Assembly (NCBI GenBank): GCA_022560555.1 | Contig: JADFSZ010000075.1 | Span: 1 to 8,311 of the forward strand | Source of the DNA: PVC group bacterium | GTDB taxonomy: Bacteria > GCA-001730085 > JADFSZ01 | Length of the DNA: 8,311 bases | Reading direction: 5' to 3' | Part shown: positions 281-8,311 of the stretch, piece after piece | How the letters are laid out: every line of letters starts with the position of its first letter | Position numbering within the stretch: position 1 is the stretch's first letter | The notes under the pieces: model-generated | Told to the model about the DNA's origin: nothing | What the model saw: the letters and a program-made list of their open reading frames with translations, nothing else | Database searches by the model: none | Program-made: the position numbers and the translations under genes

Positions 281-1195
281 ATGAACATTATGAATAGTGC
301 TGACAAAGATTTGCAAGAAAACCCCCCGGAGGAAAAAAGCAAACTCGGGGTTATTGTCCATTCATTTTTTATCATTCCGTTTCTCATCGCGGTTTTTTGT
401 GTTTTAATCTTTGCGGGTGTGCGCATCCTTACCAAAGAGCCGCATACTGTCTATGATTATATTGAGGACATAAAGGTCGGCTCCCTCAGCAAAAGGTGGC
501 AGGCGGCGTTTGAATTGTCCAAAATCCTTGTAAACAAAGAGAAAGTTCCGCGCGAGGAAGCGTTTGTAAGAGAAATGATCGCGGCGTTTGAACATGCCAA
601 GCATGATGATGCGCGCATCAGACAGTATCTGGGACTTGCTATGGGGCGCTCGGAAATCAAAGCATTTGTACGTCCGATTGAAGACAGCCTTTCTACGGAA
701 TCCGAAGAGAATCTTCCCTCCCTTATTTATGCTCTCGGCCTGTTGAAATCACGGGACACAGCAACAAGCATTCATGATTTCATAAATCATCCTGATACTC
801 GAATACGGCTTTTATCCGTTATGGCGCTCGGAAATATTCAAAATCCTGAAAGCGTGCCTTTCCTTCAAAAAGCTTTGAATGACACAGAAGTCAATGTCCG
901 GTGGGACGCTGCGATTGCTCTGGCCAAATTCGGGGATGATTCAGGCTATTCGGTGCTAAGAAATCTCCTAGATAGAGATTATTTAGCTCAATTTCCGGAG
1001 GTTGATTCCTATGAAGCCAATGAAGCCATAGTTGTGGCCATTGAAGCATCGATCTTGCTCAATCATCCGCAATTAAACGAAACGATTTACCAATTGAGTG
1101 AAAATGATGAAAATATTCGTGTTCGCCGGGTGGCCCTGAAAGCTGTCAAAATGTCAACGGATAAAGCTTCAACCCAAACGCAAAATTCACTATAA
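281..1195 (+). CDS. Membrane-anchored HEAT-repeat (PBS-lyase HEAT-like) protein, 304 aa
   Basis: There is one N-terminal hydrophobic helix (about res 23-47, GVIVHSFFIIPFLIAVFCVLIFAGV). It is followed by repeated HEAT_2/PBS-lyase-like units, for example IRLLSVMALGNIQNPESVPFLQKALND, VNVRWDAAIALAKFGDDSGYSVLRNLL and IRVRRVALKAV. The start could also be the ATG at 290. The stop lies 6 nt before the Rieske gene. Confidence 0.85.
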   Translation: MNIMNSADKDLQENPPEEKSKLGVIVHSFFIIPFLIAVFCVLIFAGVRILTKEPHTVYDYIEDIKVGSLSKRWQAAFELSKILVNKEKVPREEAFVREMIAAFEHAKHDDARIRQYLGLAMGRSEIKAFVRPIEDSLSTESEENLPSLIYALGLLKSRDTATSIHDFINHPDTRIRLLSVMALGNIQNPESVPFLQKALNDTEVNVRWDAAIALAKFGDDSGYSVLRNLLDRDYLAQFPEVDSYEANEAIVVAIEASILLNHPQLNETIYQLSENDENIRVRRVALKAVKMSTDKASTQTQNSL

Positions 1196-1201
1196 TAAAG
1201 T

Positions 1202-1813
1202 ATGACTATGACCGAAGACGCAATAAATCAAAATCCAAATGAAAATCCGGAAAGTCAAAATAAACCGGAAGTGTCTCCACCGGCATCTCCTGTGGGTGAG
1301 AAAACACCCCCCATAGAAGCCAAGGAGAAGGTCAGTCGTCGATCTTTTCTAACCTCAGCGACTCTGGCATGGGGCGCTTTTGCCGTGGCCACCGCGGGAA
1401 TTTTAACCGGTGCCGGGAGATTCTTTTTCCCCAATGTTCTCTTTGAGCCGCCGCAAACTTTTAAGGCCGGGTATCCCGATGAATATACAATCGGAGAAGT
1501 TTCAGAACGATGGAAAGAAAAATTTGGTGTATGGATTGTTCGTGAAAAGGGAATGATCTACGCTCTTTCAACCGTATGTACCCATCTGGGATGTACGCCC
1601 AACTGGCTTGGCAATGAGAAGAAATTTAAATGCCCTTGTCATGGAAGCGGATTCCGGTCGACAGGGATCAATTTTGAAGGTCCGGCACCTCGGCCCTTGG
1701 AACGCTACCGGATTGTTCTGGCTGATGACGGCCAAATTTTTGTGGATAAAACCAAGAAATATCAACATGAAAAGGGACAATGGAGCGATTCTGAGTCCTT
1801 TATTGCTGTTTAA
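1202..1813 (+). CDS. petC: Rieske [2Fe-2S] iron-sulfur subunit of a cytochrome bc/b6f-type complex (PetC/QcrA equivalent), 203 aa
   Basis: Cluster box I is CTHLGC (res 126-131) and box II is CPCHGS (res 144-149), with the 12-residue spacing typical of b6f/Bacillus-type Rieske proteins. A twin-arginine motif SRRSFL (RR at nt 1337-1342) is followed by the hydrophobic anchor TSATLAWGAFAVATAGILTGAG. Confidence 0.95.
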   Translation: MTMTEDAINQNPNENPESQNKPEVSPPASPVGEKTPPIEAKEKVSRRSFLTSATLAWGAFAVATAGILTGAGRFFFPNVLFEPPQTFKAGYPDEYTIGEVSERWKEKFGVWIVREKGMIYALSTVCTHLGCTPNWLGNEKKFKCPCHGSGFRSTGINFEGPAPRPLERYRIVLADDGQIFVDKTKKYQHEKGQWSDSESFIAV

Positions 1814-1819
1814 GGGGAG
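1814..1819 (+). promoter_or_regulatory. Shine-Dalgarno site for the cytochrome b gene
   Basis: GGGGAG lies 5 nt upstream of ATG 1825 and directly after the Rieske stop codon (TAA 1811-1813). Confidence 0.6.
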
Positions 1820-1824
1820 CGTCA

Positions 1825-2616
1825 ATGGCTGATCCGAAGAAAAAAACGATGTTTCAAAAAATAGCTGAATCCCAATTCCTAAAGTCCATTTTTCGTACGG
1901 GGATCCCGCACACGCGTCGCCAACGCATGATGGCGGTTCTTAATAATGTGTTTCTCCATCTCCACCCGGTTCGCTTACCCAAACATGCCGTCAAAGTGAA
2001 ATACACATGGTGTATGGGGGGCTTGTCCTTTTTTGTTTTTTTGGTTTTGACGGTTACGGGGATTCTTCTCATGTTTTACTACCGTCCTACCGTCGAATAT
2101 GCTTATGGAGACATTATAGATCTTGCCGAGCAAGTGCCCCTGGGAATTATGAGAGAAATTCATCGGTGGGGTGCCCATCTCATGATCATTACTGTTTGGC
2201 TTCATATGTTTCGGGTTTTTATGACAGGATCCTATAAACCGCCGCGGGAATTTAACTGGGTTATAGGGGTTCTCCTTTTGGTACTGACGATGCTTCTGAG
2301 TTTTACAGGGTATCTTTTGCCATGGGACCAGCTCGCTATTTGGGCGATCACAGTCGGATCTAATATGGCAAGAGCAACCCCTTTTCTTGGACACGAGGGG
2401 CCCGGCGCGGCTCTTCTGGCCATAGGGGATATCAATCTTGTTCATGCCGCTAGTGATGTGAGGTTTGCGCTTTTAGGCGGCCGATTTGTCGGTGAAGCCA
2501 CATTACTCAGGTTTTATGTGCTGCATTGTATTGGATTCCCGTTCATTATAATGATCTTTATGGTCGTGCATTTTTGGCGTATCCGAAAAGACGGAGGCAT
2601 ATCCGGGCCAACGTAA
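1825..2616 (+). CDS. petB: Cytochrome b6-like subunit (N-terminal four-helix half of split cytochrome b; PetB/QcrB equivalent), 263 aa
   Basis: It can be aligned by eye with cytochrome b6: WCMGG..TG..MFYYRPT, REIHRWGAHLMIITVWLHMFRVF, PREFNW, TGYLLPWDQ, ATLLRFYVLH..P and a C-terminal RKDGGISGPT. The helix B His pair is H113/H127 (13 residues between). The helix D His pair is H234/H249 (14 between, which is b6-type spacing). Confidence 0.95.
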   Translation: MADPKKKTMFQKIAESQFLKSIFRTGIPHTRRQRMMAVLNNVFLHLHPVRLPKHAVKVKYTWCMGGLSFFVFLVLTVTGILLMFYYRPTVEYAYGDIIDLAEQVPLGIMREIHRWGAHLMIITVWLHMFRVFMTGSYKPPREFNWVIGVLLLVLTMLLSFTGYLLPWDQLAIWAITVGSNMARATPFLGHEGPGAALLAIGDINLVHAASDVRFALLGGRFVGEATLLRFYVLHCIGFPFIIMIFMVVHFWRIRKDGGISGPT

Positions 2617-2618
2617 AT

Positions 2619-3734
2619 ATGGACGCTTTCAAAAGTATAATCAATAGCCTTTCTGAACCCCAGATCATGTTTTCCTTTCTTGTTCTGGTTTTTTTCTTTA
2701 TCTTTCCTCCGAGTGATAAGCTTTACCGGATCCATAAAAAACTCCGATTGGACCTATTGTGGACGAATGTGGGAGGGGTGTTCATTTTTACCGGCCTTTT
2801 TGTGTTTTTTGGTTTGGGCGTGACCGATGAGAATTTTCGACTGATTGTGACAAAGCCCGATAATGTTCCTATTGTGGGCCTGCTCTTTTTGACAATCTTT
2901 TTTCTCTGGCTTAGCATGAAACAGGGCCGCGATAACGATATCCGTTTGGCTGAAGGCCAAAAACCAAACGAATATCATGACCCGGAAGATAAGGTGCTCG
3001 TATGGCCGGATCTTGTCTATATTGAGTTGATCGCCATCGTTCTTTGTTCCATTCTGCTCATGGTGTGGTCCATTTATCTGAAAGCGCCTCTTGAAGGGCC
3101 GGCCAATTTGGCGGACTCCCCGAATCCCTCAAAAGCGCCATGGTATTTCTTGGGTTTGCAAGAGATGCTTGTGTATTTTGATCCCTGGCTCGCAGGTGTT
3201 GTGCTCCCGAGTTTTATCGTTTTGGGTCTGATGGCTATCCCGTATATTGACAGTAATAGAAAAGGACAGGGTTACTATACGTTTAACGAAAGAAAGACAG
3301 AGATATCCTTATTCCTGTTTGGATGGCTCCTTTTATGGGTCTTTCTGATCTTTGTCGGTACATTTTTACGCGGCCCCAACTGGAACTTTTTCGGTCCGTT
3401 TGAAGAATGGAGCCTCAGTAAAGTTGTTCCCTTGACTAATATAAATCTGTCAGAACTCGTCTACGTCAGATGGCTTAAAACGGGATTACCGGACAATATT
3501 TTTCTGAGGGAATTTTTCGGAATTTCATTCGTTGTAGGATATTATTTGATACTGCCTCCGCTCTTGGCTAGAACTATTTTGAAAAAATTCTATTCGAAGA
3601 TGGGGATATTTGCCTTTAGTATGTTCGTGATCTTGCTCCTGACATCCGTGACGCTCCCGATTAAAATGTACCTTCGATGGACCTTGAATCTTAAATATAT
3701 CGTGGCCATTCCCGAATTTTTCTTTAACATTTAG
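2619..3734 (+). CDS. petD: Extended subunit-IV-like protein (C-terminal half of split cytochrome b; PetD-like core with extra helices), 371 aa from ATG 2619
   Basis: The core matches subunit IV/helices E-G: VWPDLVYIELIAIVL..., the Qo-loop motif SKAPWYFLGLQEML (equivalent to PEWY) and LPSFIVLGLMAIPYID. About 8 hydrophobic helices are visible by eye. I prefer the start at ATG 2619, 2 nt after the cyt b stop. The tracked start at 2526 would overlap the cyt b 3' end by 91 nt, and ATG 2667 is an alternative. Confidence 0.85.
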   Translation: MDAFKSIINSLSEPQIMFSFLVLVFFFIFPPSDKLYRIHKKLRLDLLWTNVGGVFIFTGLFVFFGLGVTDENFRLIVTKPDNVPIVGLLFLTIFFLWLSMKQGRDNDIRLAEGQKPNEYHDPEDKVLVWPDLVYIELIAIVLCSILLMVWSIYLKAPLEGPANLADSPNPSKAPWYFLGLQEMLVYFDPWLAGVVLPSFIVLGLMAIPYIDSNRKGQGYYTFNERKTEISLFLFGWLLLWVFLIFVGTFLRGPNWNFFGPFEEWSLSKVVPLTNINLSELVYVRWLKTGLPDNIFLREFFGISFVVGYYLILPPLLARTILKKFYSKMGIFAFSMFVILLLTSVTLPIKMYLRWTLNLKYIVAIPEFFFNI

Positions 3735-3752
3735 GACTTTGAAAGAACGCCT

Positions 3753-6689
3753 GTGGCTGAAAAAAAAGAAGCAAAACAAGAGCGATACTACAGCATCTCT
3801 AAGCTGAATAAGTGGTTCGCTATCTCCAGCATGATTCTTTGTGTGGCCGTATTTGGTGTATTTGCCCAAGATTATCTGAGGGAATGGAGGGTTTTTCAGA
3901 GAGAATTCCGTGAACTGGAAGTGGAAAAAACACGTCAGGCTTATGAGAACGCTCAACAAGATCTTGAGCAAAATCAAGAGTACCAAACGCTCATTGAAGA
4001 TCAGAAGAAAGCGTCCCTGGAACTTGAGGGGAAAGAAGTTCTGCGTAAAGCGCTTCAAAAGGACATTGATAAGCTCGACTCCGAATATTACAGCGTTAAC
4101 CGACGGCATCAGTTCGCCAAGGCCGAATACGATGCCGCGAAATATCGATATGAAGACGCCCAAGATCACGAGGGATTAACAAAAGATATCAGAGACGAGT
4201 TTGCCAAAACCCAATCCCTGATGAAAGAATTAAAAATCAGCGCCGAAGATACGAAAAAGCTTTTGGATTTCAAAAAAGAGGAGCTAAGTTCTTTCGATGA
4301 GAAGATCAATCAGTTGGACAAGGCGAAAGAGGCCTTGTCGCATGAACTTGATGTTATAAATCGGATGCTGGCGAAAATCGATACGGCCCATATGTCTTTT
4401 GGTAACAGGATGGCGGATAAATTCCGAGATTTGCCCATTGTGGATTTTATGAATCCGAGCGAAAGAATTGAACAAGTCGTTGTGAAAGTAGATACGGAAA
4501 ATCTGAATTTTATGCGTGTACCGAGAGTGGATCGTTGTGTGACATGTCATCAGGGAGTACTCAGAAAAGATTTTGCCGACGCGGACAACCCGTATAAAAC
4601 CCATCCTAATCTTGATCTCTTTTTATCCAGCGGATCGCCGCACCCGTTGGAAGAATTTGGCTGTACGAGTTGTCACGCGGGTCGCGGACGAGGCACGGAT
4701 TTTGTCAGTGCCGCGCATACACCTTCAAGTCCTGAACAAGCCAAAGAATGGGAGGAAAAATATGGTTGGCATGAATTCCATCTTTGGGAAGCCCCTATGC
4801 ATGCCAAACCCCATGTGGAAGCCGGATGTTTTAAGTGTCATTCCGGCGAAACAGTGCTTCGGGGTGCCGAGAAACTTACTTTTGGTCTCAATTTGATTGA
4901 GCGCTCAGGCTGTTATTCTTGTCACACAATCGAAAAATATAAAGGCGATCCTAAAACGGGTCCCAATCTTGCTAAAATCTCATCAAAAACATCGAAAGAC
5001 TGGACCTTCCGATGGATCAAAGATCCCCAAGCCTTTCGACCAGGAACATGGATGCCCTCATTTTATGGACTATCCAATAATGATGATCCGGAGTCTGTCC
5101 AATGGACGGATCAAGAGATTCATGCCATTGTGCACTATCTTTACACCGAGAGTGAAAACTATGACATGAAAGAAATCCCTGTAGTGGGCCATTTGGCTCG
5201 CGGGGAAGAACTTGTGTCATCTATCGGGTGTTTTGCCTGTCATAAGGGTCCCAATGAGGACGATGATGAAGATCGGGATCGACAACATCTCCTCAGTGAA
5301 TTCGGACCGCATCTTTTGGGTTTTGGATCTAAAACCAGCGAGAAGTGGCTCTATCATTGGCTGAAAGATCCGAAAACATATCACCCGGATACTCGTATGC
5401 CGAATCTCAGACTCACCGATCAAGAAGCCGCGGATATCTCATCGTATCTCGTCAGTCTTTCAAATGAGGAATTTATGGAATCGTCTGTTCCTGAAATCAA
5501 CGAAGACATGATGGATAACATTACACATGAACTCTTAAGCCTTAAATTTCCCGCATGGGAGGCCGAAGAGAAATTGAAATCCATGTCTCTTGAAGATAAA
5601 TTAGCTTTTAGCGGAGAAACAATTATTCGTCAGCAGGGATGCTTTGCCTGTCACAATATTCCCGGATTTGAAGATGAAAAACCCATCGGAGTCGAACTGA
5701 CGGAAGAGGGAAGCAAGTCACTTCATAAATTTGCTTTTGAACTTTCGGATATCGAGCATAGCAAGGCAGCCTGGTTTCAGACAAAATTGAAACATCCAAG
5801 AATTTTTGATAAAGGGAAAATAAAGGGCCCTTATGAAAAATCCCGAATGCCGAAATTCCAATTTTCGGATGAAGAGATTGATGCGGTTGTGACGGCATTG
5901 CTTGGATTTGTGAAGACAGATCCCAATCTCCGGAAAAAACCCCGAACACCCAAAAACTTGTTTGTTGAAGCCGGGCAGTCTTTTATCCGTCAACACAACT
6001 GTCAGGGATGCCATATCATAGAAGGTGAAGGGGGCGCGATACAGGAGAATATTCAGGATTGGCTTGTGAAACACCAAGGAAAAACCGAAGCGGATGCCGA
6101 AGCCCTGGCCGCAAGTTTCAGCCCTCCGAATCTCATTGGAGAAGGTAAAAAAGTTCAGTCTGATTGGCTGTTTTCTTTTTTACATGAGCCCACAATAATA
6201 CGCCCCTGGCTCAAAGTCCGAATGCCGACGTATGATTTTAATGAAGAAGAGATCAATACGGCGATCAAGTATTTCAATTTTCTGGATGACGAACCGTTTC
6301 CCTTTACCGAGAAAATAAAACCTGATTTGTCCGCGGAAGAGATGGCGGCAGGAGAAAAGATGTATTCACCGGATTATTTTGATTGTTTTAATTGTCATAT
6401 TCGGGGCGCAAAAATGCCGGGTGGAACGCCGGACCGTTGGGCTCCAAATTTGGAACTTGCCAAGGAGCGTCTCAAGGCAAAATGGATCATCGATTGGATC
6501 AAAAACCCGCAAAAACTTCTTCCCGGAACCAAAATGCCGATGTATTTTGATCCTGAATATTTTGATGACTCCGGCCCGGATGACATTTTGGATGGTGATG
6601 AACATGAGCAGATTCGTGTGCTGAGAGACTATCTCCTGGTTTTACCCAAAGCTGCAAATCCTTCGTCTCCAAGTGATCAAGACGGATAA
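3753..6689 (+). CDS. Membrane-anchored octaheme c-type cytochrome with coiled-coil stalk, 978 aa (GTG start)
   Basis: There are eight CxxCH motifs: CVTCH 4536-4550, CTSCH 4662-4676, CFKCH 4827-4841, CYSCH 4911-4925, CFACH 5229-5243, CFACH 5640-5654, CQGCH 6000-6014 and CFNCH 6384-6398. A basic N-terminus plus TM helix (WFAISSMILCVAVFGVFA) is followed by an E/K/Q-rich helical region (res ~45-210). GTG 3753 is the only start upstream of the TM helix after the preceding stop (TAG 3732-3734). Confidence 0.92.
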   Translation: MAEKKEAKQERYYSISKLNKWFAISSMILCVAVFGVFAQDYLREWRVFQREFRELEVEKTRQAYENAQQDLEQNQEYQTLIEDQKKASLELEGKEVLRKALQKDIDKLDSEYYSVNRRHQFAKAEYDAAKYRYEDAQDHEGLTKDIRDEFAKTQSLMKELKISAEDTKKLLDFKKEELSSFDEKINQLDKAKEALSHELDVINRMLAKIDTAHMSFGNRMADKFRDLPIVDFMNPSERIEQVVVKVDTENLNFMRVPRVDRCVTCHQGVLRKDFADADNPYKTHPNLDLFLSSGSPHPLEEFGCTSCHAGRGRGTDFVSAAHTPSSPEQAKEWEEKYGWHEFHLWEAPMHAKPHVEAGCFKCHSGETVLRGAEKLTFGLNLIERSGCYSCHTIEKYKGDPKTGPNLAKISSKTSKDWTFRWIKDPQAFRPGTWMPSFYGLSNNDDPESVQWTDQEIHAIVHYLYTESENYDMKEIPVVGHLARGEELVSSIGCFACHKGPNEDDDEDRDRQHLLSEFGPHLLGFGSKTSEKWLYHWLKDPKTYHPDTRMPNLRLTDQEAADISSYLVSLSNEEFMESSVPEINEDMMDNITHELLSLKFPAWEAEEKLKSMSLEDKLAFSGETIIRQQGCFACHNIPGFEDEKPIGVELTEEGSKSLHKFAFELSDIEHSKAAWFQTKLKHPRIFDKGKIKGPYEKSRMPKFQFSDEEIDAVVTALLGFVKTDPNLRKKPRTPKNLFVEAGQSFIRQHNCQGCHIIEGEGGAIQENIQDWLVKHQGKTEADAEALAASFSPPNLIGEGKKVQSDWLFSFLHEPTIIRPWLKVRMPTYDFNEEEINTAIKYFNFLDDEPFPFTEKIKPDLSAEEMAAGEKMYSPDYFDCFNCHIRGAKMPGGTPDRWAPNLELAKERLKAKWIIDWIKNPQKLLPGTKMPMYFDPEYFDDSGPDDILDGDEHEQIRVLRDYLLVLPKAANPSSPSDQDG
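4911..6644 (+). other. Five tandem class-I (mono-heme, His/Met) cytochrome c modules inside the octaheme CDS (a protein-level repeat)
   Basis: Each module has CxxCH, then a GPNL-like turn, then W..W(I/L)K(D/N)P, then (R/K/W)MP (axial Met candidate), then an acidic helix ending in Y/F-L. The five core segments are WTFRWIKDPQAFRPGTWMPSF, WLYHWLKDPKTYHPDTRMPNL, WFQTKLKHPRIF..SRMPKF, WLFSFLHEPTIIRPWLKVRMPTY and WIIDWIKNPQKLLPGTKMPMY. Confidence 0.8.
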
Positions 6690-6722
6690 ATTCCCACCAC
6701 CCAACATACGGGTAAATTTTCT

Positions 6723-7505
6723 ATGATTTTGAATATCATCAGCATCATTTTTATTCTCTTCGCTATTTGTTATCCGCTAGGATATGTTTTTCATTTTGGC
6801 GTACCGATAAAACAAAGTTTTGATCGCTTCAATTATGCTTTAATCTCCATCGTTGCGTCTCTGGGAGTTCTGGCGTGCTTTGCCTTAAATATCCCTCGTA
6901 ATTCTCTGATCACTCTTATTGCTTGGGTCATCCTGCTTCTTTGTTTCACCTGGTTTTTGTGGGACCGGGATAAGTATAAGGAGATTGTGCTGATTTTGAT
7001 GTCCATGATAGGGATGCTTGTGTTTGGATTTGTCTCCAAAGACATTTTCCCTACGGCATCCATAAATCTCATATCCATGGCCGTGTGTATTCTCGGAGGT
7101 TGGGTTATTTCCTTGGCCATTTACGCGATGAATCTGGGGCATTGGTATCTGAATGTCAAAAAACTTGATCTTAAACATCTCATAAGAACCGTTTACGGAT
7201 TTACGGGACTTGTTATTTTGAGATTGATTTGGGATGGTGTGATGTTTCTCACTAAAAGCTTTACTTATAGAGGTGAAATGATCAGTTTAGGAAAATATCT
7301 TTTTACTCTTGATGGGGTATTCCTTTGGATCGCCCTTCTTTTCGGATCCGTAGTTCCACTTATTCTTACATTCATGACTCTGGAGACGCTTCGAGTCAAA
7401 TCAACACAATCGGCCACCGGGATCCTCTATGTTATTGTCGTGTCTTTGATGATAGGGGAGCTTACGTACAAATACTACCTCGTCCAATTTGGATGGGTTC
7501 TGTAA
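6723..7505 (+). CDS. Polytopic integral membrane protein (about 8 TM), unknown family, 260 aa
   Basis: The ORF is strongly hydrophobic, with about 8 helices by eye (2-23, 37-56, 61-80, 88-104, 112-137, 156-176, 193-218, 232-255). It is on the same strand 33 nt after the cytochrome c stop, and the next gene starts 2 nt after its own stop. I recognise no family motif. Confidence 0.8.
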   Translation: MILNIISIIFILFAICYPLGYVFHFGVPIKQSFDRFNYALISIVASLGVLACFALNIPRNSLITLIAWVILLLCFTWFLWDRDKYKEIVLILMSMIGMLVFGFVSKDIFPTASINLISMAVCILGGWVISLAIYAMNLGHWYLNVKKLDLKHLIRTVYGFTGLVILRLIWDGVMFLTKSFTYRGEMISLGKYLFTLDGVFLWIALLFGSVVPLILTFMTLETLRVKSTQSATGILYVIVVSLMIGELTYKYYLVQFGWVL

Positions 7506-7507
7506 CG

Positions 7508-7960
7508 ATGAAAACGGTAATCCTTGATTGTTTAGAATGTGATCAATCAACCACTAACGCTGTTGAGGATCAAAATGAAATACTCTGCTCCGGATGTCAA
7601 AAAAAATGGCTTTTTTATTCAGAAGGGTATCAATTTGAAACGTGCCCCATCTGTGAATGTAAAGAGTTTTACCGGCAAAAAGATTTTGATAAACGTATCG
7701 GATGTCTCATTATGTTTGTCGCGATTGTTCTTGTGCCATGGACATACGGGCTTTCGCTCCCGTTCTTTTTTGCGATTGATTGGTTTTTATATCGAAGGGT
7801 CCCCGATATGGCGGTGTGCTATCTGTGCCGGGGTGAGTTTAGAGGATTTGACCTTCAAAAAAAAATCAAAACCTTCAACCATATTATGGCAGAAGGCTTT
7901 GAAAAAAAACGTTTAACGCAAAAGAAATGGTTTTCAAGCCCTCAGGACACCCCCGAATGA
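7508..7960 (+). CDS. Small membrane protein with four CxxC pairs (double zinc-ribbon or rubredoxin-like, split by a hydrophobic hairpin), 150 aa
   Basis: I prefer the start at ATG 7508, 2 nt after the preceding TAA (7503-7505). The tracked start at 7325 overlaps the membrane-protein gene in another frame. The Cys pairs are C8xxC11, C27xxC30, C46xxC49 (CPIC) and C104xxC107. A hydrophobic segment (res ~64-95) lies between the third and fourth pairs, and the C-terminus is basic. Confidence 0.75.
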   Translation: MKTVILDCLECDQSTTNAVEDQNEILCSGCQKKWLFYSEGYQFETCPICECKEFYRQKDFDKRIGCLIMFVAIVLVPWTYGLSLPFFFAIDWFLYRRVPDMAVCYLCRGEFRGFDLQKKIKTFNHIMAEGFEKKRLTQKKWFSSPQDTPE

Positions 7961-8004
7961 AAATCATCCAAGTCTAATAGTATCAGTATATTAAAAATCT
8001 CATC

Positions 8005-8033
8005 TTGACACAAAATCCCAAATAAGCTACTCT
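8005..8033 (+). promoter_or_regulatory. Candidate sigma70-type promoter for the downstream secreted-protein gene
   Basis: A consensus -35 TTGACA (8005-8010) is separated by a 17-nt spacer from TACTCT (8028-8033, TAnnnT). It lies in the 189-nt gap after the operon. This is a sequence match only. Confidence 0.35.
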
Positions 8034-8138
8034 ATCGAAAATTTTCAATCTCTGTAAGGGTTTGAATTCGAATAAGTAAAGCCCAATATCGTTCCTTAAA
8101 ACAGAGAGCAGAATGCCCTTAATATCATCCCAAAACCC

Positions 8139-8144
8139 GGAGGA
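8139..8144 (+). promoter_or_regulatory. Shine-Dalgarno site
   Basis: GGAGGA lies 5 nt upstream of ATG 8150. Confidence 0.7.
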
Positions 8145-8149
8145 CATTT

Positions 8150-8311
8150 ATGAAACACATTCAAACAATCCTTTTACCTATCATGGCGATCTTTTTGACG
8201 ACAACGTGTGTCGATGCCGCTTCTATCACGGGGAAGGTCGTTTACGAGGGGGCCGTTCCTAACTTAAAACCCATCAGCATGGACGCGGATCCTATATGTG
8301 CCGCAAAGCAT
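8150..8311 (+). CDS. 5' end of a secreted protein (signal peptide plus start of a beta-sandwich-like domain), partial and running off the window
   Basis: It has a strong SD and ATG and stays open to the window end (54 codons): MKHIQTILLPIMAIFLTTTCVDAASITGKVVYEGAVPNLKPISMDADPICAAKH. A Sec-type signal (basic n-region, hydrophobic core, VDA-A cleavage-like site) is present. It is missing from the ORF track because it is truncated. From memory, the G-K-V-x-Y/F-E-G-x-x-P...MDADP-x-C motif matches the N-termini of secreted proteins often annotated as carboxypeptidase-regulatory-like or cupredoxin (plastocyanin/azurin family). Confidence 0.65.
   Translation, partial: MKHIQTILLPIMAIFLTTTCVDAASITGKVVYEGAVPNLKPISMDADPICAAKH

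Follow-up and report, generated by a model that had tools for sequence, protein, structure and literature searches.

A conserved Rieske/cytochrome b6-type gene cluster with a HEAT-repeat protein and an octaheme cytochrome c, and an adjoining two-gene membrane module, on a contig of a PVC group bacterium

We have analyzed an 8,311-bp stretch of DNA, hereafter the window, which is a whole contig (JADFSZ010000075.1, assembly GCA_022560555.1) of a metagenome-assembled genome (MAG) labelled "PVC group bacterium". Seven open reading frames (ORFs) on its + strand, designated here O1 to O7, fill positions 281-7960. We consider it likely that the first five specify a quinol-oxidising Rieske/cytochrome b complex of the APWY clade, which would act as complex III of an oxygen-respiring chain, with the HEAT-repeat protein O1 as a scaffold and with O6 and O7 as a separate module. 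The respiratory role is proposed because a cupredoxin-like gene and a gene cluster for an A-type oxidase often follow the locus in relatives. The seven genes are as follows.

281-1195, + strand: O1, membrane-anchored HEAT-repeat protein, 304 residues (Pfam HEAT_2, E 4.8e-20)
1202-1813, + strand: O2, Rieske 2Fe-2S protein, 203 residues (Pfam Rieske, E 1.5e-11)
1825-2616, + strand: O3, b6-like four-helix cytochrome b, 263 residues (Pfam Cytochrome_B, E 1e-43)
2619-3734, + strand: O4, enlarged subunit IV, 371 residues (Pfam Cytochrom_B_C, weak, E 3.2e-4)
3753-6689, + strand: O5, membrane-anchored octaheme cytochrome c, 978 residues, GTG start (Pfam, at least 4 Cytochrom_C stretches)
6723-7505, + strand: O6, membrane protein with 8 transmembrane helices, 260 residues (AlphaFold2 model with 8 helices, predicted local distance difference test score (pLDDT) 93.8; motifs MNLGHWYLN at nucleotides (nt) 7128-7154 and STQSATGILY at 7401-7430)
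7508-7960, + strand: O7, small membrane protein with two Cys4 sites, 150 residues (4 CxxC motifs; 33-residue hydrophobic hairpin, residues 59-91)

By the ORF listing, the gaps between these genes are 6, 11, 2, 18, 33 and 2 nt, and homologues were found for every ORF. Longer TTG starts are listed for O4 (2526) and O7 (7325), both overlapping the preceding gene; homologue alignments begin at ATG 2619 and ATG 7508, respectively, which supports the ATG starts. Pfam and NCBIfam profile searches gave no match for O6 or O7. A first-pass annotation of the same DNA had described seven same-strand ORFs with these gaps, a Rieske plus split b6-type core, a subunit IV of about 8 helices instead of 3, and a 978-residue anchored octaheme in place of cytochrome c1/f, and had proposed profile searches as a check. 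These descriptions held up. Coordinates and gaps were confirmed, and the searches returned HEAT_2 for O1, Rieske for O2, Cytochrome_B for O3, a weak Cytochrom_B_C for O4 and Cytochrom_C for O5; the core is further supported by its cluster motifs, His pairs, WCMGG and APWY, the subunit IV by its hydropathy, and the octaheme by eight CxxCH motifs, an N-terminal transmembrane helix and the lack of any match to cytochrome f.

Conservation of the O1 to O5 gene order

A scan of a one-genome-per-species collection with O3 matched at least 600 stretches, at least 597 of which were confirmed as relatives. Our locus comparisons concern the best 80 of these at least 597 relatives, and the taxon labels are those of the MAG depositors. 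Cytochrome b is 68-88% identical across the 80 loci, which come from Marinimicrobia/Fidelibacterota, Acidobacteriota (Vicinamibacterales and Thermoanaerobaculia), Planctomycetota, Omnitrophota, Latescibacterota, Bacteriovoracaceae (Bdellovibrionota) and others; the core is present, for example, in a MAG labelled Bacteriovorax stolpii (L049). We observed by tblastn that the order O1-O2-O3-O4-O5 is kept nearly everywhere in this set, in at least 6 phyla. Clustering of ORFs agreed with the tblastn order and recovered O1 in several loci where tblastn had missed it. Synteny in high-GC loci rests on tblastn, the simple ORF caller having yielded spurious antisense ORFs there. As judged by gene order, O1 to O5 are one conserved unit.

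The position of O1 deserves separate mention, since synteny of this gene with the bc (Rieske/cytochrome b) core had been set beforehand as the test on which the first-pass grouping could fail. O1 lies immediately upstream of the Rieske gene in nearly all 80 loci and in at least 6 phyla, and because this position is kept, the HEAT gene is by synteny a conserved fifth member of the cluster and no chance neighbour.

Two loci depart from the usual order. In L016, additional ORFs at 8377-9921 (514 residues, between the Rieske and cytochrome b genes) and 12010-12633 (207 residues, between the subunit IV and octaheme genes) interrupt it, and these may represent an insertion. In L090 (8873-15730, minus strand), the order is permuted to octaheme, HEAT, Rieske, cytochrome b and subunit IV, followed by a gene for a 126-residue Fer4 ferredoxin, and this cluster converges on a cytochrome oxidase (cox) operon that ends with an O6-O7 pair. 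The ferredoxin gene attached to the bc genes of L090 recalls the cytoplasmic Fe-S subunits of anammox complexes.

Rieske protein, cytochrome b and subunit IV

The O2 sequence carries a twin-arginine (Tat) motif, SRRSFL (nt 1334-1351), and the cluster motifs CTHLGC (1577-1594) and CPCHGS (1631-1648), and its box II reads CPCHGSGF, that is, of the Ser-Phe type. Matches of O2 to the NCBIfam models PetC-like and Rieske_proteo were under the cut-off. O3 and O4 are separate genes, as in a split cytochrome b. The best match of O3 in the PDB is the cyanobacterial b6 chain 1vf5_A (E 7.8e-44); its His pairs 113/127 and 234/249 align with the heme ligands of b6 and are kept in 46 homologues, and a conserved WCMGG (nt 2008-2022) is found at the position of the cysteine that holds heme ci in b6. 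By eye, O3 seems to be longer than b6 by some 20 residues inserted between its helices C and D (FLGHEGPGA...GDINLVHAASDVRFALLGGRFVGE), at about 2380-2490 of the window (residues ~186-222). This stretch is conserved across phyla, and the insertion is probably the cause of the Pfam match being split into two stretches.

O4 matches subunit IV of cytochrome b6f in the PDB with E 2.5e-6, over residues 109-241 only, and its scores against the NCBIfam models for ExtQ (62.6 bits) and b6f subunit IV (26.5 bits) are both under cut-off. Hydropathy analysis predicts about 8 hydrophobic helices, with 3 extra N-terminal and 2 extra C-terminal helices on either side of the 3 canonical ones; the C-terminal extension is well conserved among homologues. 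The quinol oxidation (Qo) motif of O4 is APWY (nt 3135-3146, residues 173-176), within a conserved PNPsKAPWYFLGLQE, where bc1 and b6f complexes have PEWY. Searches of the PDB returned no close homologue of the core with a solved structure.

By the combination of APWY, WCMGG and CPCHGSGF, the core belongs to the APWY clade, for which the relevant passages of Kao and Hunte (2014, PMC4122944) describe the same Qo motif, WCMGG, a Ser-Phe Rieske protein and a mixed taxonomy suggesting lateral transfer. In those passages, Ser-Phe Rieske proteins are predicted to fall in the mid-plus to high potential class, and no member of the clade is said to have been characterised in vitro or in vivo by 2014. 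The clade is probably subfamily G of Dibrova et al. (PMC5600118). The passages on the clade in these papers cover cytochrome b, subunit IV and the Rieske protein, with no HEAT gene, 8-helix subunit IV or O6-O7 pair in them, and the phyla that the passages in PMC4122944 give for the clade do not include Marinimicrobia, Omnitrophota, Latescibacterota or Bdellovibrionota.

One further feature of O3 is an N-terminal extension with a conserved (V)FLHLHP, in which LHLHP occupies residues 44-48 (nt 1954-1968). In AlphaFold3 models of Kuenenia complexes, an extra b-type heme is placed at the dimer interface, where His43 or His62 of the cytochrome b N-terminus binds it (PMC12954380).

The octaheme cytochrome

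O5 contains exactly eight CxxCH motifs. Its N-terminus consists of a transmembrane helix (residues 15-41), and long helices make up the next 165 or so residues (44-209), after which comes a c3/c7-like part with three CxxCH motifs (262, 304 and 359) that is poorly modelled by AlphaFold2, and then five class-I domains (CxxCH at 387, 493, 630, 750 and 878), each with a conserved Met-Pro ligand motif. Of 46 homologues, which represent different phyla, 45 keep all eight motifs, the lone exception having masked residues, and the conserved residues include H284, H297 and H322 as well as M434, M549, M699, M824 and M928. The AlphaFold2 model has a pLDDT of 79 and a predicted template-modelling score of 0.66. 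We found no analogue of O5 in the PDB, where sequence searches gave only weak matches to CcoO and cytochrome c and Foldseek returned coiled-coil proteins only. Databases name the homologues only "c-type cytochrome" or "mono/diheme cytochrome c family protein".

A near-identical cluster occurs in L001 (GCA_022561295.1, JADFRM010000043.1, 3514-6813), with 95-100% amino-acid identity and an identical cytochrome b. Its octaheme gene is called with 1099 residues, as against 978 here, and differs at the C-terminus; a frameshift, a difference between strains or faulty assembly may be the cause.

The HEAT-repeat protein

O1 has a transmembrane segment at about residues 22-50 and HEAT_2/HEAT_PBS repeats at residues 147-297. 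Counts of Lys and Arg flanking the transmembrane segment (111 versus 75 residues; 27 loci versus 6) favour an orientation with the N-terminus inside and the HEAT domain outside, and this domain is probably periplasmic. In our searches of the open-access literature, we came upon no mention of a HEAT protein with Rieske/cytochrome b complexes. We considered whether O1 might be a heme-ci lyase, by analogy with CpcE and NblB and single thioether bonds, and set this aside: the CpcE model scored 34 bits against a cut-off of 330, and the HEAT domain is predicted on the positive (p) side of the membrane, heme ci being on the negative (n) side. Apparent fusions of O1 homologues (413-861 residues), which we had looked to for clues about topology, were either ORFs called too long in high-GC loci or HEAT proteins that are unrelated.

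The downstream gene and its linkage to oxidase genes in relatives

The gene that follows O7 in the window is incomplete:

8150-8311, + strand: N-terminus of a cupredoxin-like, CarboxypepD_reg-domain protein (54 residues, running off the contig; identified by alignment with relatives)

Full-length relatives have about 238 residues, a signal peptide, a CarboxypepD_reg domain (Pfam) and the sequence HNVH...CDVHPWM, which is a type-1-copper-like ligand pattern. Copies lie, for instance, at 15010-15729 in L006, 18681-19400 in L016 and 14754-15470 in L082, and the genes that then follow in relatives are COX1-COX3-COX4-COX2-CtaA-CtaB, with COX1 immediately next in many lineages. Among 48 long loci, the cupredoxin-like gene was seen after the octaheme gene in 24, and 10 contain COX1. 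From this arrangement, the cupredoxin-like protein is a candidate for the carrier that would link the octaheme cytochrome with the oxidase. The first-pass view of a bounded seven-gene operon is accordingly difficult to maintain; the unit is probably not self-contained, with the cupredoxin-like gene next in line and the cox genes after it in relatives.

In two Omnitrophota contigs, genes for the alpha, gamma, beta and epsilon subunits of ATP synthase F1 lie directly upstream of the HEAT gene (L082, 1-3318; L084, 1-3347). The ATP synthase, bc and cox genes of these contigs are all on the + strand within about 20 kb, and genes for an extracytoplasmic function (ECF) sigma factor and a VWA-domain protein lie between the bc and cox genes.

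The O6-O7 pair

The AlphaFold2 model of O6 and the motif count of O7 agree with the 8-transmembrane protein and the 4xCxxC protein of the first-pass annotation. A word-indexed search gave 252 homologues of O6, all of them "hypothetical" and none with a Pfam domain; by profile search, the family comprises at least 1400 clusters at 50% identity, with the shared motifs LGHWYL and STQSATG(I/L)LY, and is without a Pfam model of its own. PDB profile searches with O6 and O7 returned nothing significant. By structure, the best Foldseek matches of O6 were 9ilt_F, 6btm_F, 8k9e_C, 6lod_C and 2vpw_C, with TM-scores of 0.47-0.65, probabilities of 0.98-1.0 and E-values of only 0.02-0.2; these are the NrfD-like ActF/ActC proteins of alternative complex III and PsrC. 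No match to Pfam DmsC was obtained for O6 or for 45 of the 46 members of alignment A5, and one family member (P0289) scored 31.1 bits against the DmsC cut-off of 22.3 and aligned with the O6 profile at an hhalign probability of 98.8%. On balance, these data lean towards O6 being a divergent DmsC/NrfD-like anchor. It would resemble DmsC, PsrC and ActC-ActF (PMC8076601) in what may be a similar 8-transmembrane fold, in the one DmsC-matching family member and in the Fe-S and ferredoxin genes that often adjoin members of its family; unlike the DmsC/NrfD anchors, O6 has no Pfam match, and instead of a four-cluster ferredoxin of the NrfC/DmsB type, which is missing from the window, its partner is a small Cys4 protein.

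The Cys4 sites of O7 are formed by CLEC and CSGC and by CPIC and CYLC, the latter bridging the hairpin, and C46, C49, C104 and C107 are invariant in 24 homologues. Because C46/C49 and C104/C107 make up one site, both ends of the hairpin should lie on the same side of the membrane, and by the charges of the O6 loops, assessed by eye, this side would be the cytoplasm. Weak profile matches were to the zinc-ribbon proteins RpoP, L37Ae and S27e; the sites appear to be zinc-ribbon or rubredoxin-like, the sequence being compatible with either Zn or Fe.

The first-pass annotation had grouped O6 and O7 with the bc core, and this synteny stood for some lineages and fell for others. Omnitrophota/PVC-type relatives (L004, L007, L009, L016, L082-L087) are the only ones in which the pair accompanies the core. 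There its order is kept even at 33-46% identity, the two genes often overlap by 4 nt, and in one relative MAG that lacks O1 the pair is still attached to the bc genes. In other lineages with the same core, no O6-O7 pair was found within 10 kb. An O7-type gene follows the O6-family gene in 15 of 19 fetched loci with the O6 family (exceptions: L092, L094, L095 and L096). Elsewhere the pair stands directly after COX2 (L090, member P0241) and closes a NuoBD-NuoG-like-Fer4-DUF2203-Fer2 operon in a Bdellovibrionota MAG, and single O6-family genes come after Fer4-Mrp-FeS_assembly_P, after an NADH_4Fe-4S protein and after Fer2-Fe-S_biosyn. By these neighbourhoods, O6-O7 is a separable two-gene module, linked to the bc-cox locus but not specific for it, and it may function as an accessory subunit, an assembly factor or an n-side redox partner.

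Genes for Fer2/Fer4 ferredoxins, IscA-like, Mrp and DUF59 proteins and a NuoBD-NuoG-like operon recur next to members of the O6 family (P0225/L093, P0283/L094, P0276/L095, P0289/L096 and P0241/L090). The family looks like a group of undescribed membrane partners of cytoplasmic Fe-S proteins.

Proposed electron path and alternatives

In the path that we propose for O1 to O5, quinol would be oxidised at a Qo site of cytochrome b and the enlarged subunit IV, at the APWY motif. One electron would pass to the Tat-exported Rieske cluster and then into a membrane-anchored chain of eight c hemes in place of cytochrome c1/f, beginning with three hemes that are probably bis-His ligated and continuing through the five His/Met class-I domains; the other would travel via hemes bL and bH and a probably covalent heme ci (WCMGG) to the quinone reduction (Qi) site, and a Q cycle of this kind would build proton-motive force. 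We infer the direction of electron flow and the acceptor from gene neighbourhood, by which the octaheme wire would most likely deliver electrons to the cupredoxin-like protein encoded next, and this protein to an A-type heme-copper oxidase. O1 would be a structural or assembly scaffold that probably faces the periplasm, and O6-O7 a translationally coupled module with a cytoplasm-facing Cys4 protein, placed between the bc and cox genes in this lineage.

Several points weigh against this scheme. No member of the clade has been purified, and the mechanism is deduced from sequence and context. The cupredoxin/cox linkage is frequent and not universal, with neither a cupredoxin gene nor COX1 in the fetched flanks of any locus labelled Vicinamibacterales. 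The three bis-His hemes suggest a low-potential entry, which would be unusual directly after a fairly high-potential Rieske cluster, and complexes of the APWY type may run in reverse according to the relevant passage of Kao and Hunte (PMC4122944). As for the individual proteins, the topology of O1 is derived from the positive-inside rule only, and the link of O6 to DmsC consists of one bridging sequence and the Foldseek E-values of 0.02-0.2.

Opposite or different uses of the same core were therefore weighed, namely reverse flow from a high-potential donor to quinone, or delivery of electrons to nitrogen oxides, metals, selenite or another anaerobic or extracytoplasmic acceptor. There are earlier proposals of such roles, both for other complexes of the APWY clade and for the Ext cluster of Geobacter; APWY is linked with reverse operation in the cited passage (PMC4122944); the nearest NCBIfam models (ExtP, ExtQ, ExtS) come from a cluster tied to the reduction of Fe(III) and selenite; for Kuenenia relatives, coupling to NAD(P)H and nitrite has been proposed; and about half of the long loci lack a cox or cupredoxin neighbour. 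We nonetheless regard a role apart from oxygen respiration as quite unlikely, given that cupredoxin, A-type oxidase and heme A synthesis genes are recurrent neighbours across phyla, that the window contains no reductase genes, that five His/Met class-I domains fit a high-potential exit, and that every Ext score is under its cut-off. It is hardly credible, in turn, that O1, O6 and O7 are chance neighbours of the bc core: only their lack of functional annotation speaks for this, and the position of O1 is kept across at least 6 phyla and that of O6/O7 across relatives with 33-46% identity.

The other alternatives concern the place of O6 and O7. According to the first-pass annotation, all seven proteins form one novel holo-complex, with O6 and O7 as integral supernumerary subunits. 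The tight gaps of 33 and 2 nt, the 4-nt overlap of O6 and O7 in relatives, the retention of the seven-gene order in Omnitrophota MAGs even where O6 identity is 33-35%, and the attachment of the pair to bc genes in the MAG that lacks O1 are all consistent with this proposal. Yet none of the loci with the same core from Marinimicrobia, Acidobacteriota, Latescibacterota or Bacteriovoracaceae has O6 or O7, the pair of L090 is translationally coupled to COX2 and not to the bc genes, and distant pairs lie in the NuoBD-NuoG-Fer4-Fer2 operon, with single O6-family genes beside Fe-S biogenesis genes, so that we judge a seven-subunit complex to be unlikely. Somewhat less so, but still doubtful, is the proposal that O6-O7 serves biogenesis or delivers a cofactor (Fe-S, heme or copper), so that the Rieske protein or the oxidase can mature. 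O6-family genes do adjoin genes for IscA-like Fe-S_biosyn proteins, for an Mrp/ParA ATPase with FeS_assembly_P and for small Fer2/Fer4 ferredoxins; the pair stands between or after structural genes near CtaA/CtaB, here and in L090; and many lineages that have this core do without it, as a dispensable helper would allow. The DmsC/NrfD-like fold, however, is known from quinone-interacting anchors and not from assembly factors, and the NuoBD-NuoG-Fer4-Fer2 context resembles an electron-transfer enzyme. A bolder version of the separate-module reading, which we advance as speculation with little probability, is that O6-O7 is an undescribed, widespread module for varied respiratory operons, providing n-side electron entry or exit or a quinone site, and that it would give the complex a second n-side redox branch which, with a periplasmic HEAT subunit, would amount to a new class of complex III architecture. 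Such a branch would be comparable to that proposed for the NAD(P)-reducing anammox complexes.

Comparison with described systems

The first-pass annotation had also held that the combination of genes was distinct and had asked whether an identical set with experimentally defined subunits was already known. We found no such set in the PDB or in the open-access literature, and searches of that literature for Rieske/cytochrome b with HEAT repeats, Omnitrophota or Marinimicrobia turned up no account of the cluster; papers on Caldithrix and on cable bacteria concern other clusters. The arrangement Rieske-b6-subunit IV-octaheme, however, was noted in 2013, and to this extent the claim of distinctness does not stand. 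Lucker et al. (2013, PMC3578206) reported for Nitrospina gracilis, Kuenenia and Methylomirabilis oxyfera a Rieske-b6-subunit IV operon with an atypical octaheme protein as the only cytochrome c partner. That operon is like O2 to O5, and, going by the published description, O5 looks like the same kind of subunit. No HEAT gene and no O6 or O7 is mentioned for it, and the Nitrospina complex is discussed for reverse electron flow (PMC3578206). What appears new relative to the open-access literature is that a HEAT gene is conserved, that subunit IV has 8 helices and that the cluster occurs so broadly, together with the recurrent cupredoxin/A-type oxidase linkage and the O6-O7 module.

The Kuenenia complex Kustd1480-1485 (PMC12954380) shares with the present locus a b6-like cytochrome b, which in Kuenenia carries heme cN, and an enlarged subunit IV. 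Its octaheme protein is large, and the published model shows long alpha-helices of this protein wrapped around the complex; in O5, the long helices after the anchor span about 165 residues. The Kuenenia complex differs in having a cytoplasmic NAD(P) oxidoreductase with Fe-S clusters, none of which is encoded in the window, in a subunit IV of 5 helices versus about 8 in O4, in lacking a HEAT protein, and in being located in the anammoxosome and not beside an aa3-type oxidase. The two Kuenenia Rieske proteins of related complexes have measured potentials of +303 and +335 mV (PMC12954380).

The nearest named profile models are those of ExtO, ExtP, ExtQ and ExtS of Geobacter sulfurreducens (NCBIfam NF040969-71; PMC5877670), which comprise a Rieske protein, a cytochrome b, a membrane protein and a c-type cytochrome. 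All scores were under the curated cut-offs (O3 with ExtP, 270 of 290 bits; O4 with ExtQ, 62.6 of 150; ExtS, 57 of 100), which makes these proteins close relatives and not equivalogs. ExtQ has 16.8 kDa and ExtS 4 hemes, and the Ext cluster has in addition a porin, a rhodanese and cytochromes with 10-12 hemes (PMC5877670).

Cytochrome b6f (1vf5, 1q90, 6rqf) is the best solved relative of O3 and O4, with a split cytochrome b and a CxGG heme-ci motif, and its acceptor is the cupredoxin plastocyanin, a cupredoxin acceptor being proposed here too. Unlike b6f, the present locus has no cytochrome f and no match to PetG, PetL, PetM or PetN, an 8-helix subunit IV as against 3 helices, APWY in place of PEWY, and a non-photosynthetic context. 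In the actinobacterial bcc-aa3 supercomplex (6hwh, 7rh5), a membrane-bound c subunit with several hemes stands in for soluble cytochrome c, so that complex III is wired to an A-type oxidase, and by analogy of function the locus most resembles such membrane-wired complex III-IV chains. The actinobacterial subunit has two hemes versus eight, the cytochrome b is unsplit and the heme-ci motif is missing, and we do not mean to imply a physical supercomplex here.

Significance

The five-gene cluster appears to be a major type of complex III in several groups that are abundant yet seldom cultured, namely Marinimicrobia of the ocean, Acidobacteriota of soil, Omnitrophota, Planctomycetota and the predatory Bdellovibrionota. 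No structure has been solved, no example purified and no name agreed for it, and its parts are annotated only as "c-type cytochrome" or "hypothetical". Because of these vague annotations, metabolic reconstructions from metagenomes may miss or mislabel the cluster, and this affects which lineages are called as respiring oxygen. The cluster offers a test case for whether heme ci is bound outside phototrophs and Firmicutes, for Qo function without the acidic residue (APWY), and for why multi-heme wires replaced cytochrome c1/f. The O6-O7 pair is a separate lead to a large uncharacterised family related to quinone-interacting anchors.

Boundaries of the locus and minor observations

Three features precede O1 in the window:

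1-115, + strand: 3' end of an upstream ORF read in frame 1 (last residues ...GKRTSIRK before the stop), the 5' boundary and outside the system
143-178, + strand: intrinsic terminator hairpin, AAAAAGGGAACTTT / AAAGTTCCCTTTTT, with a T run (RNA fold: 14-bp stem, free energy -16.6 kcal/mol)
180-208, + strand: promoter-like site, TTGACT-17-TAGACT (9/12 consensus match)

By eye, the fragment at 1-115 is unlike ATP synthase epsilon, the upstream gene in Omnitrophota. The hairpin at 143-178, which was detected by RNA folding and is missing from the list of the consensus terminator scan, is by its predicted fold the terminator of the upstream transcription unit. The site at 180-208 is a plausible promoter since it is placed between this terminator and O1. 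The terminator of the first-pass annotation was thus recovered by folding, and its upstream promoter amounts to a 9/12 consensus match. Promoter and terminator counts over the whole window equal the shuffle expectation, and the scans therefore contribute nothing past the one clear hairpin.

Downstream of O7, the gap of 189 nt (7961-8149) before the + strand gene at 8150 is as the first-pass annotation had it; the new promoter that it placed there was not recovered. The consensus scan, at its threshold, gave no terminator after O7 and no promoter in the gap, where by eye there is only a TTGACA at 8005-8010 with a poor -10 element. Neither RNA genes nor meaningful repeats were found in the window by Rfam, tRNA and repeat scans.

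For O7, the protein collection gave no exact match and a best one of 86% identity; the deposited record may lack an annotation for this gene or have it begin elsewhere. O5 and O6, also from this contig, were recovered with 100% identity, O6 as IID04_04865.

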